Source: a virus
Taxonomy: Duplodnaviria; Heunggongvirae; Uroviricota; Caudoviricetes
IMG/VR virus record: IMGVR_UViG_2563366824_000007
Reading direction: 5' to 3' (one strand)
DNA: 43,405 nucleotides
The translations under genes were made by a program, and so were the position numbers. Shown here in pieces: positions 5,286 to 31,810 of the stretch (the stretch's first letter is position 1; every line of letters begins with the position of its first letter). Below the pieces are notes generated by a model. It saw only the letters and a program-made list of their open reading frames with translations, had not been told where the DNA came from and ran no database searches.

Positions 5286-5557
5286 TTATTTTACCCTGAA
5301 GGAGAAGGTTTATTAAAAGAATTTTCCTTCAGGGTAACATGTATAAGTACATAAATTCGCTACATTTTCGCCTAATAATTTGTTTTACTTCAATGATTAA
5401 TAAACGAAAATAAATTTAAAGTCTAAGTATTAGTACCGTAAGCTCTTTTCCTCGTAGATGTGGTTATGTTCCACCAAACAGGAAGGCCGAGCGTTGTATC
5501 GTAGTATTCAACTGGCACAATTGAAGAGACAGGCCTCTGCGCAGTTGTACCATATAA

Positions 5558-5707
5558 CAAAGATGTCAACGGAGAAATGCAGGCCGCAAACTGACTGATG
5601 ATGAAAAAACGCGGCTGAATGCGGTACTCGACTACATCGACGCAGTGACAGCAGTTGATGCTGACGCTGCGCCTGATATCAACTGGCCCGCTCCCCCGGT
5701 TGCGTAG
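5558..5707 (+). pseudogene. Tail fiber assembly (Tfa) 3' remnant, tfaS-like
   Basis: Open frame with no start translating to ...[40 protein letters not shown], which resembles Tfa C-termini; convergent with and overlapping the intact tfa 3' end. Confidence 0.5.
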
Positions 5708-6083
5708 GCCACTCTATTTCGGGTGCCGCTGAGGTATCAACACGGTTCAGCAGTACCCTGTATTTTTTCCACGCCAGCAGTAACGCCTGTTCATCGTCTG
5801 TCGCCATTTCCAAATCAACGGCATCCTGCAGCGGTGCTATTGTGTTATTTGCTACGGTCAGTAGTGCTGATTTCTGCAGCTCAGCCTCCGCAACTAACGC
5901 GTTGTGAGAGCGTTCTGGGGGAGGTGGCGCGGTAAATACTCCGTCTGAATATGACCAACCGATGCCAGCATCGCCGTTTAACGGAACTAAATTACCAGCC
6001 TCTGGTTTCCATTCAGAAATTCCGTCCCAGATAATGACATTAATAACAACGTTATTATCAACAACTGCATAGATATCATTCAT
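5679..6083 (-). CDS. Tail fiber assembly protein (Tfa family)
   Basis: 134 aa; C-terminus ...[25 protein letters not shown] typical of Tfa chaperones; directly downstream of the tail fiber gene. Confidence 0.8.
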
Positions 6084-26009: not shown

Positions 26010-26360
26010 TTACTTCAACCGTTCACGGGCCGTCTTCGCCTTATGACACGGCCAGCACAGGCTCTGCAGATTGCTGTCGGCATCAGTGCCGCCATGCGCT
26101 TTAGGGATGATGTGGTCAACGGTTTTCGCCTCACGTACCACACCACCACGCAGACATAACTGACACAGTCCTTTGTCACGCTTGAGCACACGTTCACGGA
26201 TAACATCCCATTTCGAACCATAACCGCGCTGGTGTCTGGACTGGCCCGGCTTGTATTGCTTCCAGCCTTCACTTTTGTGGCTTTCGCAATAGCCTGACGG
26301 GTCAGTTGTGGTATGGCGGCAGCCGCGAACACGGCAGGCTTTTGGGGTTCGTGGTGGCAT
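26010..26360 (-). CDS. HNH endonuclease (packaging-associated)
   Basis: Cys/His-rich HNH motifs (CxxC ... DHIIPKAHGG ... CWPCH); ATG at 26360 with GGAG ribosome-binding site preferred over track start 26429. Confidence 0.82.
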   Translation of the reverse strand: MPPRTPKACRVRGCRHTTTDPSGYCESHKSEGWKQYKPGQSRHQRGYGSKWDVIRERVLKRDKGLCQLCLRGGVVREAKTVDHIIPKAHGGTDADSNLQSLCWPCHKAKTARERLK

Positions 26361-26425
26361 GCTGGCTCCAATAAAAAGCCCCGCGACGCGAGGCTTAGAC
26401 AGAAAAAACACCGGATAAGATCTGG

Positions 26426-26629
26426 TCATTCTTCCTTTTTAATAATGACTTCTCGAGGGCGCAATTGTTGGATAGCACGACAAATACAATATGGAATAAC
26501 TGCCCATGCTACTCCCATTGCTGCACCTGCAGCCTGTTGTGGAGCACTCTGAGCACCGAAAACCCCGAGGATTCCTTCAATAAATCCAATAGCACTACAC
26601 AAAAGACTGATGACCCAGAGAATTTTCAT
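26426..26629 (-). CDS. Small membrane protein of unknown function
   Basis: 67-aa ORF with ATG start, two hydrophobic segments and a charged C-terminus; AT-rich. Confidence 0.4.
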   Translation of the reverse strand: MKILWVISLLCSAIGFIEGILGVFGAQSAPQQAAGAAMGVAWAVIPYCICRAIQQLRPREVIIKKEE

Positions 26630-26746
26630 AAACCCAAACTCCTTTTAAATAAACACATTACTAGGATAATTCTCATAAAATGTTAGTAAAGTATTTTCAG
26701 GAAAATAGCGTATCACTGCCTATTTTTGACACTGATGCTGGGATAA

Positions 26747-27121
26747 TTATTCCGATCGCTGGAGTTGCTCATGATGATACAGAGCGAGAATCAGGTCATA
26801 AGACCCTTGCCTGTCTTTGTAACCAGTTTTATCAACCAATTCAGCTTTACTGATTCCGGGTAAATCAAGAATCAGATTCGCAACTTCAATTGCCCTTTGG
26901 TACAACTTACCGCCTTTTTTCTCCCCATGCAGTGGTTTTACATTCTTCAGGTAACCGCTATCCGCCAGGGCGAGAAATGTTGCCCTTGGGCATATCTTCT
27001 TTCTTGACGATTCGCTTTCTGTAACCTCTGCGATAGCTGCATCCCATGCATCACGAGGAGTCATTGAGCTATCAGCCACCAAATGATAAGCGATTAAAGC
27101 AACGTGAGCGTATTGAGACAT
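26747..27121 (-). CDS. Hypothetical protein between the lysis and packaging modules
   Basis: ATG at 27121 (MSQYAHVALIAYHL...) in frame with the longer track ORF that starts at GTG 27172; AT-rich; no recognised family. Confidence 0.5.
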   Translation of the reverse strand: MSQYAHVALIAYHLVADSSMTPRDAWDAAIAEVTESESSRKKICPRATFLALADSGYLKNVKPLHGEKKGGKLYQRAIEVANLILDLPGISKAELVDKTGYKDRQGSYDLILALYHHEQLQRSE

Positions 27122-27159
27122 AATGCATCCATATACAAAAATCTTATGATAAGACTTTT

Positions 27160-27603
27160 CTAATATGAACACTGTGATCTCACATATTCTTGCAGGCCAT
27201 TCAATTGGTTAGTTATGGTTTCGATGCGCTCTCTGAGAACGAAATAATCCCGTTGAGCGGTGTCAGTAAGTCTGGGGCTGGAAGCATCATCCACGCCGGA
27301 GGCGGCGGTGGTTTTATGCTTGTCCGGACAGACTGCTTTGACGTGCAGCCACTTACGACCAGCAGAAACATCAGCACGAAGACTTTCGATAGTCGCGTTA
27401 GCATCAGCAAGCTCCTTTGTGTATCTGGCGTCGAGTTCAGCTACATCATGTTGACGCTTCTGCATGTCAGCGATGATGGATGTGGCTTTGTCGCGCTGTT
27501 CTTTGTAGGTCATGGCGTTATCACGGTAATGATTAACAGCCCATGACAGGCAGACGATGATGCTGATAACCAGAGCGGAGATAATCGCGGTTACTCTACT
27601 CAT
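27160..27603 (-). CDS. Rz-like i-spanin
   Basis: N-terminal TM anchor followed by coiled-coil periplasmic domain; ATG 27603 overlaps the endolysin stop (ATGA); contains the embedded Rz1 frame. Confidence 0.75.
27213..27404 (-). CDS. Rz1-like o-spanin (lipoprotein, embedded in Rz)
   Basis: +1-frame ORF inside Rz; [20 protein letters not shown] lipobox signal and proline-rich mature part (PPPPPAW). Confidence 0.7.
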
Positions 27604-28097
27604 TGTTGCCCCCACAAACAGACTTCACGCTCAATCTCACGGCGAGTCATCAGCCCTTTCCATTGCTTACCGCCAGCGTATGTCCAGCGCCGTAGCTGAT
27701 CACATGCGCCTTTGATATCGCCCTGGTTTATTTTGCGAAGAAGTGTCGATGTTCTGAAATTTCCAGCACCAACGTTGTAAACGAACGAGTAAAGAGCGCC
27801 GCGCGTTGTTTCCGGTATATCGACTTTGATGTACGGGTTAATTTGTCTGGCGACAGTGGCAAGGTCTTTATTCAGGAGGGCTTTGCATTCTGCTTCGGTA
27901 TACGTTTTACCGAGCATAATGTCTTTTCCGGTATGCCCGTAACATACAGTCCATACACCAACGATATCTTTATATGGTATGTAGCTGACGCCTTCCAGAC
28001 CATCGTTACCACTTGGGCCAGTGATTAACACAGATGCTATAGCAATAGCCCCGCCACCAATAGCCGCAGCAACGGCTTTTCGTAATGATGGAGGCAT
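27600..28097 (-). CDS. SAR endolysin (phage-21 R-like lysozyme)
   Basis: 165 aa; N-terminal weakly hydrophobic Gly/Ala-rich signal-anchor-release domain followed by a lysozyme-like region (E-D-T motif area); directly follows the pinholin. Confidence 0.85.
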
Positions 28098-28312
28098 TAT
28101 TCACCTCTCGCAGCCTTGCGCTTATCTTCTTTAATCTTGAAATAAAGGTTTGTCAGGTACGTCAGCAGGCCAAATACCAGGCTACCCAGCACACCTATTG
28201 CTGCCCACTGTGAGGGCGTGACTTTATCGAGCAGCTGTAAAAACCAGTAGCCAGCACTGCCTGCGGAGGTGCCGTAGGCAATGCCCGTTGTTAACTTATC
28301 CATAGATTTCAT
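28097..28312 (-). CDS. Pinholin (phage-21 S-like class II holin)
   Basis: 71 aa [26 protein letters not shown]... with two TM domains, dual-start motif (Met1/Met4) and C-terminal KAARGE. Confidence 0.85.
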
Positions 28313-28500
28313 AGCCTCACCTCCGCAAATAACGGATGGTGTACACGGTTCGGAACGAAGAGGAAAGGTATAGAAGTTACATTAGCGTAAGGCTTGAACA
28401 TCTATTCAAAAAGAAAAACGCCAGCGATTATTCTGGCGTAGCTGAAAGCATCATACAATTATCAAATACGAAAATTACAAAATCATTAAAACGCATCACG

Positions 28501-29232
28501 TTACATCATGTCTTTTTCTAAAAAAAATCTTGATGAATATTGATGGGGAGGAACACCAAAATATCTTCTGAAAACACTCACAAAATATGACGTGTTTTCA
28601 TAACCGCATATCTCAGCAACTTTTCCAACAGAATATAAATTGTAACTTAATAACCTTTCCGCCATCACCATTCGCTCTTCAAGAATTAACTTACTAAATG
28701 ATAAGCCTTCGTGCTTTAATTTTCTTTTTAACAGACTTTCACTCAGATACAGTCTTGAAGATATATCACAAAGTCTCCATGCTGCAGATATATCCGTGTG
28801 AATAATAGCCTTAACTTTACTTCCTAAACTATTAAGACATCCAAATAAAAAACTTTGCACTATTTTCTCTGAAGATAAGATAGCAAGACATGCAAGTGAT
28901 ATTTGATTTCTAACAAAATCCACAGTTCTGCCATCACAATTCAAGCATGCAATCAAGTTCTTTAACAATGAAAAATCTTCACATTCCACCATCAAGTATG
29001 CCGGATAAAACCTTCTTACAGAAAAAGGTGAGAGTGTGTTGCTTTTAAAGAAATCATTAACTGTTTTCTCTTCAACATCTACGATCATTACATGATCTAT
29101 ATTTGATGAAAAAAAATCTTTTAAATTGTAATCAATGAGAACAGCACTTCCTTTTTTAAACAAAATATCTTCTTTACCAATTCGGACATCAAACGAGTTC
29201 AACACCAAAATGATAGAACATATGTATGGCAT
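28501..29232 (-). CDS. AraC/XylS-family transcriptional regulator
   Basis: C-terminal AraC-type HTH (...GKVAEICGYENTSYFVSVFRRYFGVPP...); very AT-rich; ATG at 29232 with AGGTGG ribosome-binding site preferred over track GTG 29241. Confidence 0.8.
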   Translation of the reverse strand: MPYICSIILVLNSFDVRIGKEDILFKKGSAVLIDYNLKDFFSSNIDHVMIVDVEEKTVNDFFKSNTLSPFSVRRFYPAYLMVECEDFSLLKNLIACLNCDGRTVDFVRNQISLACLAILSSEKIVQSFLFGCLNSLGSKVKAIIHTDISAAWRLCDISSRLYLSESLLKRKLKHEGLSFSKLILEERMVMAERLLSYNLYSVGKVAEICGYENTSYFVSVFRRYFGVPPHQYSSRFFLEKDMM

Positions 29233-29583
29233 ATTATCCACCTGATATCATTGGGGTTACACCAGGTAAGTATAGGTGGAAAATCAATATTCGCCAGTTC
29301 AACAATAAGGAAAATTTCATTGCATCACAAGTATAAAATTATGTATTTAACTCACAAAGACAAATTATTAAACCAATCTGTTATATTATATATAGCTGCG
29401 TGGAATCATAATATTATATATTTTGACTGGCATGTTTACCAACTTTAAGTTGCATCTCAATTGTTTCTTCAGCGTAAACAGAGTTTTTATACAAACTGAC
29501 ACTCTGGGTATCATAGTGTAGTTTTTACGATTGTAAATATCCTGCATGCAGGAACTCATCCTTTTGGATGATATCGCATACAA

Positions 29584-30543
29584 TTAATTTACCATCAGTC
29601 TTAGAGCCAGTTCGTCCGGATAGGGATCGAAGTAATTCTGTGTAAGCAAGTAATCATTAGGATACTCACCCAGATAATGCTTCAGCAGAGTCAACGGCGC
29701 AAGAAGAGGTAATGTGCCAGAACGATAGTTAAGTATAACCTCGCTCAACTCTTTACGCTGGCGTGTACTTAAGTAGTTACTAAAATACCCCTGTATATGC
29801 ATCAGCACATTCGTGTGATTTTTACGTGATGCAGGTTTTCTGAGAATCGCCATCAGCTTATCACGATACACCTCAAAGTATGATTCAAGGTCCGCCCACT
29901 CGTGTATTGCAGCCACAAATGGTCCCATATCTTTATAGCCTGCCTGACTATGCGCCAACAACTGAAGCTTATAACGACTATGAAAAGCTAATAACTCTCT
30001 TCTTGATAATTTCTCCTTGTAAAGGTGATTGAGCTCATGCAAAGCAAAAACTCTTTCAACAAAATTCTCACGAAGCACTGGATCATGTAATCGCCCATCC
30101 TCTTCAACCGGTAGCCAGGAAAACTTTTCCATCAAAGTACTCGTAAATAGTCCCACTCCATCTTTACGACCTCGATTACCATTTTCATCATAGACACGCA
30201 CGCGCTCCATGCCACAGCTGGGAGATTTAGCACAAACCACAACCCCCGATACATCCTTTAATTTGTCCATATAAGAACGACTAAACTCTGTCATTCTCTC
30301 TGTCACATCCTCATTCTGGTCGTGGCTGAAACACATCCGTATATTTCCTTGCGTCGAGCGCACAAGACGTAGAGCAGGACGCGGAACTGGCAGCCCTATA
30401 GCCATTTCCGGACATACTGGTCTGAATGTTACCCATTCCACTAATTTGTCCATTAAAAAGTCAGCTCTTTTGTGACCACCATCAAAACGAACAGCAGAAC
30501 CGGCCAAACAACCGCTGATTCCAATCACAGGTTTTTTTATCAT
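29584..30543 (-). CDS. DUF523 (TudS-like) - DUF1722 (YbgA-like) fusion protein
   Basis: 319 aa; N-terminal Cys-containing motifs (GISGCL ... CPE ... CAKSPSCG) consistent with a TudS-type Fe-S domain, YbgA-like C-terminal half; GGGGGAG ribosome-binding site. Confidence 0.65.
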   Translation of the reverse strand: MIKKPVIGISGCLAGSAVRFDGGHKRADFLMDKLVEWVTFRPVCPEMAIGLPVPRPALRLVRSTQGNIRMCFSHDQNEDVTERMTEFSRSYMDKLKDVSGVVVCAKSPSCGMERVRVYDENGNRGRKDGVGLFTSTLMEKFSWLPVEEDGRLHDPVLRENFVERVFALHELNHLYKEKLSRRELLAFHSRYKLQLLAHSQAGYKDMGPFVAAIHEWADLESYFEVYRDKLMAILRKPASRKNHTNVLMHIQGYFSNYLSTRQRKELSEVILNYRSGTLPLLAPLTLLKHYLGEYPNDYLLTQNYFDPYPDELALRLMVN

Positions 30544-30735
30544 ATTCTCCCCCTTGACTAATTCATTAACACATAAACTGTGTAGTGCACGGAATAAATT
30601 GCCTTTCTGGCGTCATCACTGACAATTTTTCTGTTATGGACTATTCCTAATATAGTATGAAAGTTCTTTAAGTGATCGGTCGTAATCATCTATCTTTCAT
30701 ACTTACTCTCAACTATCAAAAGTACAGGATTTATT

Positions 30736-31260
30736 ATGAAGTTATGGCCTGTGTTGACTGGCATTGCACTCTCTTTCACTCTTATAGCATGTAAGGCCCC
30801 GACACCACCTAAAGGTGTGCAGCCGATTACAAATTTTGACGCCAACCGCTACCTCGGAAAATGGTATGAAATAGCTCGCCTCGAGAACCGGTTCGAACGT
30901 GATCTGGAACAGGTCAGCGCTACTTATGGAAAACGGAACGACGGAGGGATTCGTGTACTTAACCGTGGATACGATCCAACGAAAAATAAATGGAGCGAGA
31001 GCGAAGGTAAAGCATACTTTACTGGAGATACTAAAACTGCAGCATTGAAGGTTTCGTTTTTTGGCCCCTTCTATGGTGGCTATAATGTAATCAAACTGGA
31101 TGATGAGTATAAGTATGCTCTTGTCAGTGGTCCGAACAGAGAATACCTATGGATTCTGGCAAGGACCCCAACTATTCCAGATAAAGTAAAAGCAGACTAT
31201 GTGCGAACCGCTCAAAAGTTGGGATTCAATGTCAATGAATTATTATGGGTTAAACAATAA
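30736..31260 (+). CDS. blc: Outer-membrane lipocalin Blc paralog
   Basis: 174 aa; lipoprotein signal (LIAC) and lipocalin motifs (NFDANRYLGKWYEIARLENRFER ... FFGPFYGGYNVI ... YLWILAR) closely resembling E. coli Blc. Confidence 0.85.
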   Translation: MKLWPVLTGIALSFTLIACKAPTPPKGVQPITNFDANRYLGKWYEIARLENRFERDLEQVSATYGKRNDGGIRVLNRGYDPTKNKWSESEGKAYFTGDTKTAALKVSFFGPFYGGYNVIKLDDEYKYALVSGPNREYLWILARTPTIPDKVKADYVRTAQKLGFNVNELLWVKQ

Positions 31261-31288
31261 AATCCCTACCCGAAATAATACTTATTAG

Positions 31289-31315
31289 AAAAAAACCAGC
31301 CTTTGGGGAGGCTGG
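31289..31315 (-). terminator. tR'-like intrinsic terminator downstream of the late promoter
   Basis: Minus-strand hairpin CCAGCC-loop-GGCTGG followed by a 7-U run; about 60 nt downstream of the putative late start. Confidence 0.55.
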
Positions 31316-31415: not shown

Positions 31416-31793
31416 TTATTTCGAACAATCAGCATCCATCTCCAATCGGAGATCCAACACCATCAGCATACCCTCCACTACGCCCTCAGCTTTCTGGAGC
31501 ATCCTGCCAACCCAACAATCAGATCGCCCATGCTTACGTGCAAGCGCCATAAAAGTCATGCCGCCGACATAATAGTCCACCAATAAATCATGCAAATCGC
31601 TGTTGTTCTTTTTCAGACGGGCCATGCACCCGCAAATGATCATCGCGTCATCGTCACAACATTGTGGGCGAGATTTTACTTTTGAAGGAATTAATCCCTT
31701 AAAACCGGCGGCAATGGACGACCAGGTCACATCTTCATGATTATTAGCCGCCCACGCTCCCCAACGCTCAAGAACCATCTGAATATCACGCAT
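31416..31793 (-). CDS. Antitermination protein Q (QuuD-like)
   Basis: [33 protein letters not shown]... with Cys cluster ([12 protein letters not shown]), recognised as DLP12 QuuD-type Q; ATG 31793 preferred over track TTG 31808. Confidence 0.75.
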
Positions 31794-31810
31794 CAACTTT
31801 CTCCACAAAA

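Follow-up and report, generated by a model that had tools for sequence, protein, structure and literature searches.

The window analysed here, the whole 43,405-nucleotide (nt) stretch of IMG/VR record IMGVR_UViG_2563366824_000007, is a complete SfI-like lambdoid prophage. Two small genes lie on its minus strand between the lysis cassette and the HNH endonuclease and terminase genes, as a preliminary description made from the sequence had noticed; both open reading frames (ORFs), of 67 and 124 amino acids (aa), are found there. On balance, we favour the view that they represent two independent cargo genes of an SfI-like prophage of Escherichia coli and Shigella, housed in the variable region that separates the lysis cassette from the cos/packaging module. 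The 67-aa gene very likely has the architecture of independent cargo, that is, of a moron, a word used here in the sense that reportedly goes back to Juhala and colleagues in 2000. The 124-aa gene, a member of the Pfam family DUF6979, is cargo as well but not a self-contained unit.

Architecture of the 67-aa gene

Morons are distinguished by a deviant base composition, a promoter and a terminator of their own, and presence or absence among related phages (PMC3594210). The 67-aa gene deviates from its neighbours in composition, carries its own terminator and is absent from mEp460, 4A7, SfII and SfIV despite common flanks. From the sequence, we envision a self-contained moron made up of a predicted sigma-70-like promoter, a strong ribosome-binding site, the ORF and a terminator. 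These elements and the DUF6979 gene, from which the 67-aa ORF is separated by a spacer of 117 nt, are arranged as follows.

26747-27121, minus strand: DUF6979 gene, 124 aa (ORF and match to Pfam PF22399)
26663-26690, minus strand: promoter-like element of the 67-aa gene, with a -35 hexamer TTTACT (26690-26685), a 16-nt spacer and a -10 hexamer TATCCT (26668-26663) (read from the sequence, with conservation)
26639-26642, minus strand: ribosome-binding site GGAG, 9 nt 5' of the ATG of the 67-aa gene (conserved in the family alignment)
26426-26629, minus strand: 67-aa gene, phrog_12304 (ORF and PHROG match)
26372-26396, minus strand: intrinsic-terminator-like hairpin (AAGCCTCGC-GTC-GCGGGGCTT) with T-run, 30 nt past the stop codon of the 67-aa gene (found by scan; predicted -13.7 kcal/mol)

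The 67-aa gene has a GC content of 0.436 (0.28 at third codon positions, GC3) and the 124-aa gene one of 0.448 (GC3 0.40), against 0.499 for the whole window and 0.55-0.59 for the HNH, terS, terL and portal genes (GC3 0.56-0.68, with terL and portal at 0.66-0.68). The preliminary description had remarked that both genes are more AT-rich than the structural genes, and the remark holds.

The extent of the unit was delineated by aligning 200 nt upstream and 120 nt downstream of the 67-aa gene from 78 distinct loci. Similarity across these loci is limited to the interval from about -75 to about +260 relative to the ATG, and many phages, a plasmid and chromosomal islands share as one block the roughly 75 base pairs (bp) upstream, the ORF and the GC hairpin with its T-run. 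Judged by this pattern, the unit appears to move horizontally as a block of about 340 bp.

The pattern TTTAC[TA]-N16-TAT..T occurs in 41 of 57 distinct upstream sequences taken from unrelated phage contexts, with constant hexamers and a variable spacer. Downstream, diverged homologues have a hairpin and T-run at the equivalent place, built from other stems (AGCCGCC/GGCGGCT, ACCCCGC/GCGGGGT and ACCGCC/GGCGGT; predicted -12 to -21 kcal/mol). The terminators were folded one by one; RNAalifold on a MAFFT alignment, which shifted the stems out of register, gave no structure. A GATAATG motif located 5' of the -35 hexamer in many homologues was considered as a Fur box, and this reading was dropped, as the window's own copy lacks the motif.

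Conservation and predicted structure of the 67-aa protein

Both ORFs are real genes. When the 67-aa gene is compared with homologues of about 77% identity, the non-synonymous difference is 0.12-0.16 and synonymous sites are saturated, which corresponds to a ratio of non-synonymous to synonymous change (dN/dS) of about 0.06-0.1. The 124-aa ORF is intact in 27 of 28 distinct phage variants, and dN/dS among diverged pairs is 0.21-0.30. Because both are under purifying constraint, the overlapping plus-strand ORFs are best regarded as shadow ORFs.

Homologues of the 67-aa protein form 45 clusters of 52-97% identity in Enterobacterales, with representatives in Escherichia, Enterobacter, Rahnella, Ewingella, Kluyvera, Pantoea, Yersinia and Morganella. 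The protein matches phrog_12304 (E 2e-44), a group of no known function; Pfam and NCBIfam gave no family for it. The claim that neither product contains a recognised domain therefore stands for the 67-aa protein and fails for the 124-aa protein, which is a DUF6979 member. A hit of the 67-aa protein to the Pfam family T4SS_pilin (E 0.059; 13.9 bits against a cut-off of 26.6) was discarded and is probably compositional. Searches of PADLOC and NCBIfam gave nothing significant for either protein, profiles of the two families retrieved no PDB chain by sequence at E <= 10, and Foldseek against BFVD gave no match at E <= 0.001.

Structure prediction, which the preliminary description had proposed as a check, gave a helical hairpin for the 67-aa protein and a seven-helix fold for the 124-aa protein. 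In the AlphaFold2 (AF2) model of the former, helices span residues 2-25 and 29-55, with a mean confidence score (pLDDT) of 86, in keeping with the earlier assignment as a membrane protein. We therefore regard it as a predicted two-helix hairpin of the inner membrane. By the positive-inside rule (K2 at the N-terminus; R51, R57, R59, K64 and K65 in the tail), both termini would face the cytoplasm (N-in/C-in) and the conserved turn would be periplasmic. N-terminally extended homologues, namely a zinc-ribbon fusion in Dokdonella and a 107-aa form in a Bryobacteraceae genome, are compatible with a cytoplasmic N-terminus.

The family alignment comprises a variable first hydrophobic segment, a near-invariant core (A-x-S-A-P-Q-Q-A-A-G-A-A-M-G-x-A-W-A-V-I-P-Y-C) and a charged tail. 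Constraint is strongest at the putative periplasmic turn and along the small-residue side of helix 2, a pattern that hints at an oligomer or at a specific partner in the membrane.

The gene has partly escaped annotation. The SfI GenBank/RefSeq record (NC_027339; locus at 427-812) holds no coding sequence for it, although the gene is called in E. coli genomes by the NCBI Prokaryotic Genome Annotation Pipeline (PGAP). Neither the 67-aa nor the 124-aa ORF is discussed in the SfI genome paper, and no literature was found for DUF6979, PF22399, the PHROG identifiers or the peptide motifs.

Genomic contexts of the 67-aa gene

Among 80 viral contigs that carry the 67-aa gene, lysis genes lie upstream in 75 and packaging genes downstream in 60 (at a median distance of 348 nt). 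The gene accompanies at least three unrelated endolysin types and three terminase types, and a wide range of genes separates Rz from the unit. The preliminary description had supposed that this position often holds accessory genes, and the 80 viral contigs, with their very different intervening genes, bear out that variable cargo occupies the slot after Rz and before the packaging genes. The exact 67-aa sequence is present in at least 1000 contigs.

The gene also occurs outside this slot. In Pseudomonas taiwanensis and Buttiauxella, a homologue resides in the tail operon, followed by a gene for a homologous lipoprotein of phrog_914. These loci (Buttiauxella contig L018, 3540-4130; P. taiwanensis contig L020, 5830-6930) lie near tail-tip genes and upstream of a J-like host-specificity gene. 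The two lipoproteins carry an LSGC or LVGC lipobox, and the homologue and the lipoprotein may form a two-gene envelope module in these phages. Further sites are a Pantoea plasmid, a Morganella primase island and a position beside icd in Ewingella; in Dokdonella and a Bryobacteraceae genome, homologues adjoin recombinase/integrase genes. The Dokdonella fugitiva locus (contig L017, 5797-6510) encodes the hairpin module fused to an N-terminal zinc-ribbon (125 aa), followed by a HIRAN-domain protein, with an integrase nearby. In Morganella morganii (contigs L004-L007, 2530-5560), a 72-aa homologue lies in a P4-like primase island, between the gene for an 800-aa membrane-spanning protein and an overlapping gene whose product, of 114 aa, is secreted (phrog_13007).

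Might the 67-aa protein nonetheless serve lysis, for example as a second holin-like protein, an antiholin or a timing regulator that is made from the late transcript and modulates the P21-type pinholin/endolysin/spanin pathway? Such a role would agree with the lysis genes that lie upstream on the same strand in most viral loci, and with a size and predicted topology reminiscent of class II holins (a pair of transmembrane helices, the second rich in small residues, followed by a charged tail at the C-terminus). However, no holin family was matched in Pfam at E <= 1, the gene possesses a promoter-like element and a terminator of its own, the endolysins alongside are of unrelated types, and variable genes separate it from Rz. 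Tail operons, a plasmid and islands that lack lysis genes harbour it as well, and it is missing from most SfI relatives (SfII, SfIV and SfV-type phages) and from HK97-type phages. We consider a lysis accessory function unlikely, and the lysis-regulatory role entertained in the preliminary description can hardly be upheld for this gene. Clear homology to known lysis accessory proteins, which that description had named as evidence against its own view of the two genes, was found for neither.

Alternatively, the 67-aa protein may be a host-fitness factor apart from exclusion: an orphan immunity protein against a pore-forming bacteriocin or a contact-dependent toxin, or else a small protein that regulates an inner-membrane transporter or a stress sensor. 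Its predicted moron architecture and the stand-alone chromosomal and plasmid copies are consistent with this idea, as is the peak of conservation in the turn and helix 2, which would fit one specific membrane partner; moreover, a gene for a secreted protein or lipoprotein comes after it in four non-lysis contexts. Those secreted neighbours belong to different families, however (phrog_914, phrog_13007 and phrog_1848), no toxin gene is consistently adjacent, and there is no likeness to known immunity families. A role of this kind is conceivable and in our view rather doubtful.

The two cargo genes of the window are adjacent only in the SfI-like lineage; a single further locus has both, 2.6 kb apart. 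A functional pair was considered and rejected, since co-occurrence is essentially confined to that one lineage, and for the same reason the two are better described as independent cargo genes than as a cassette.

The DUF6979 gene of the prophage

The 124-aa protein matches Pfam PF22399 (DUF6979) over nearly its whole length (E 2.6e-28; score 99.1 bits, cut-off 27; residues 1-120 aligned with positions 1-126 of the 127-position profile), and it matches phrog_5039 (E 8e-69). A GTG-extended form of 141 aa would reach 27172; the DUF6979 profile begins at the ATG of the 124-aa form. In the AF2 model, the protein is all-helical, with seven helices and a pLDDT of 89, and no signal peptide is present; it is predicted to be a soluble cytoplasmic protein.

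Its mode of spread differs from that of the 67-aa unit. The DUF6979 gene is tied to one Rz allele in 46 of 48 viral loci. In phages of E. coli, Shigella and Salmonella, it invariably comes after one particular Rz allele, and the 200 nt 5' of it, which belong to Rz, are conserved along with the gene (93-98%). Scanning the minus strand for promoters and terminators revealed none for this gene, so that the promoter and terminator expected of a moron are lacking, and it is cargo without being a self-contained unit. Given that it has neither and travels with one Rz allele, it is probably expressed from the late transcript. The gene follows Rz in the absence of the 67-aa gene in mEp460, 4A7, D2, 1W and 3W.

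At its 3' end, similarity of the window to mEp460, 4A7 and related lambdoid phages ceases about 48 nt before the DUF6979 stop codon (approximately 26747-26795), and the last 15 or so residues differ (DLILALYHHEQLQRSE versus DIVLTLAQYGFLQRPQ). Together, these observations point to a recombination junction within the 3' end of the gene.

The DUF6979 family and its neighbours

What might a DUF6979 protein do? An exhaustive profile search yielded 524 representative clusters, nearly all of them stand-alone proteins of 120-140 aa. Cys44 is invariant, and near-invariant positions such as Lys42, Pro45 and Trp26 fall within a basic segment (S-x-S-S-R-K-K-G-C-P-R) that opens helix 4. The common family motif reads G-C-P-R...L-G-L-C-E; the phage and enterobacterial branch has Ala in place of the second Cys and a diverged C-terminal helix.

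Fusions and neighbours of family members elsewhere include several domains reminiscent of conflict systems. Two environmental contigs (L114, 5001-6756; L119, 1455-2732) encode fusions of DUF6979 with an AbiV-like HEPN domain, 424-425 aa in length, and a GIY-YIG nuclease gene is next in L114. Adjacent genes at other loci encode a DUF7662 protein with a nuclease-like C-terminus (seven loci), a related 150-aa protein (five loci), an SNase protein, a TIR protein and a large TPR/ankyrin-repeat protein, STAND-like on visual inspection. In addition, a domain of about 60 aa without a Pfam family (RAGD[IV]H..[LM]G...R.P.VC..L) precedes DUF6979 in protein P0152 (residues 1-60) and forms the C-terminus of the product of an adjacent gene in contigs L172, L174 and L176 (the last at 5451-6035, minus strand; pairwise E 3e-9). 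These three contigs also carry the TIR protein and the large TPR/ankyrin-repeat protein. A search of the window for DUF6979 partner domains (the N-terminal domain of P0152, c38 and c24) found none.

Based on these neighbours and fusions, we tentatively suggest a nucleic-acid-binding or regulatory role for DUF6979 in phage-host conflict. As the main alternative, the protein might be a plain winged-helix-like, DNA-binding transcription factor for phage or host genes without a role in a conflict system, which strikes us as fairly unlikely.

Proposed working of the 67-aa gene

We envision that the 67-aa gene is expressed in two ways. Q-dependent read-through of the late operon is established biology of lambdoid phages; during lytic growth, antiterminated late transcription from upstream of the holin would pass through both cargo genes and the 67-aa terminator to reach the HNH and terminase genes. 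In the lysogen, transcription of the 67-aa gene would begin at the gene's own promoter and end at its own terminator. The product would then insert into the inner membrane as an N-in/C-in hairpin and may act at the envelope to the benefit of the lysogen. By analogy with other small membrane proteins of phages, its single most likely role, put forward tentatively, would be superinfection exclusion or protection of the envelope against incoming DNA or a toxin. Conceivably, and held just as cautiously, the family might constitute unrecognised, widely mobile prophage hairpin proteins that range from Enterobacterales to Pseudomonas, Xanthomonadales and Acidobacteria and define a new exclusion or envelope-protection class, acting through the APQQAAGAA...VIPYC motif on a conserved host membrane partner.

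Several observations weigh against this account and its counterpart for DUF6979. The promoter-like element agrees with the consensus at only 8 of 12 positions, and a consensus scan did not report it. That lysis genes precede the 67-aa gene on the same strand in 75 of 80 viral loci is to be expected of a lysis accessory, too. In Pfam, NCBIfam and PADLOC, the 67-aa protein shows no significant similarity to known exclusion, immunity or defence proteins, and the same databases gave no match that would place it with YebO/gp15, Imm, SieB or Cor. As for DUF6979, the phage protein lacks the second Cys common to most family members; the neighbours of the family are highly variable and most of the environmental contigs are short, which makes guilt-by-association weak.

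A small hydrophobic hairpin might also harm rather than protect the membrane. As a depolarising toxin, the 67-aa protein would be an addiction peptide akin to type I toxin-antitoxin systems or an abortive-infection effector, stabilising the prophage or killing infected cells. The Gly/Ala-rich helix packing motifs, the carriage on mobile elements and a weak, non-significant PADLOC match to the transmembrane part of PycC (E 0.026) could be taken in this sense. Yet the protein has two helices and exceeds the typical length of type I toxins, no antisense RNA family rises above noise in Rfam (26200-27400), and no long 5' untranslated region was found. The strong ribosome-binding site and the probably constitutive promoter are likewise hard to reconcile with a toxin, and no partner gene is conserved across contexts. 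We deem a toxin quite improbable and retain exclusion or envelope protection as the preferred role.

Locus and prophage setting

Phage SfI and several E. coli chromosomes share the locus at 26300-27300 with 100% identity. The whole locus is carried by 52 of 5426 complete E. coli genomes (about 1%), and part of it is matched by 806. The prophage adjoins tRNA-Arg(cct) and contains an integrase together with gtrA, gtrB and gtr-specific genes. The genes that flank the two cargo genes are the following.

28097-28312, minus strand: P21-type (S21-type) holin, the genuine holin of the prophage (Pfam and PHROG)
27600-28097, minus strand: phage lysozyme (endolysin) (Pfam and PHROG)
27160-27615, minus strand: Rz i-spanin with embedded Rz1 (27213-27410), end of the lysis cassette and upstream flank (Pfam Phage_lysis, E 2e-39; phrog_13)
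26010-26360, minus strand: HNH endonuclease in its 116-aa form, with GGAG at 26369-26366 and ATG at 26360; start of the packaging module and downstream flank (Pfam HNH, E 3e-16)

The HNH gene is followed by terS and then terL. Its longest ORF (139 aa) begins at an ATG that overlaps the stop codon of the 67-aa gene (ATGA), and the terminator of the 67-aa unit falls within the extension; the start of the 116-aa form agrees with the SfI record. The 139-aa form, which is called in many genomes, is probably over-extended.

The window holds another block of cargo. Between the antiterminator gene Q (31416-31808, minus strand) and the holin, about 3 kb of AT-rich DNA (28400-31300; GC 0.30-0.45) stand where the SfI reference has a tRNA-Asn/tRNA-Thr pair. 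This block encodes an AraC-family regulator (28501-29241, minus strand), a 2-thiouracil desulfurase/DUF1722 protein (29584-30543, minus strand) and a lipocalin (30736-31260, plus strand). A terminator-like hairpin (28439-28418, minus strand) lies directly 5' of the holin.

Implications

The arrangement is ordinary in kind: two cargo genes occupy a well-known variable slot. One of them, the 67-aa gene, is very likely a moron, clean in its structure, widespread and only in part annotated. It is chiefly through morons that temperate phages bring new traits to their hosts, and small membrane morons are mostly without known function. With its sequence in at least 1000 contigs and the full locus in about 1% of complete E. 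coli genomes, the 67-aa gene would be a convenient test case for exclusion and envelope functions that prophages bring to E. coli and Shigella. If a role were established for DUF6979, several hundred protein clusters would gain an annotation, and a new HEPN- or nuclease-type component of conflict systems might come to light. For annotation, two corrections follow: a real gene is missing from the SfI reference, and the 139-aa HNH ORF probably starts too far upstream.

Comparison with known systems

The 67-aa gene is likely to be neither a lysis gene nor Bor-like. The class II holins, including the pinholin S21 (Phage_holin_2_1), do resemble its product, as predicted, in several respects: a length of about 70 aa, two transmembrane helices with both termini inside, a charged C-terminus and packing through small residues. 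It differs from them in that no profile match is found, the gene does not lie upstream of the endolysin, it has a promoter-like element and a terminator of its own, and it also occurs far from lysis genes.

Lambda bor is located after Rz, and position is what could suggest that the two genes form a Bor-like cassette for serum resistance or virulence, as the preliminary description had in mind. Like bor, they are AT-rich cargo in the variable slot between Rz and cos of lambdoid phages. Bor is, however, an outer-membrane lipoprotein whose gene is transcribed against the late operon, whereas both genes here run with it. Neither protein matches Lambda_Bor in Pfam at E <= 1; Cys11 of the 67-aa protein is preceded by L-L and not by [ASTVI][GAS], as a lipobox with its signal peptide would require, and it is not conserved. 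The 124-aa product is a soluble helical DUF6979 protein, and the genes are no functional pair. A Bor-like cassette is thus extremely unlikely.

Similar in kind are inner-membrane proteins that shield the cell from phages. T4 Imm, an inner-membrane protector of the infected cell, is of comparable size and also has two helices. P22 SieA is a phage inner-membrane protein that blocks injection (PMC10883804). The resemblance of both to the 67-aa protein is one of kind only, with no homology detected in Pfam.

The nearest parallel may be HK97 gp15, a YebO-like superinfection-exclusion protein of the inner membrane that is encoded by a moron (Cumby et al., 2012, reviewed in PMC3594210). Pfam gives no YebO match for the 67-aa protein, which is modelled with two membrane helices, and its gene usually occupies the slot after the lysis genes and not the tail operon, the Pseudomonas and Buttiauxella copies excepted. 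The likeness to HK97 gp15 would be one of architecture only: in both cases, a small inner-membrane protein (predicted as such here) is encoded by a promoter-gene-terminator unit (here with a predicted promoter) of deviant composition that is set into the late operon of a lambdoid phage and has homologues outside prophages.

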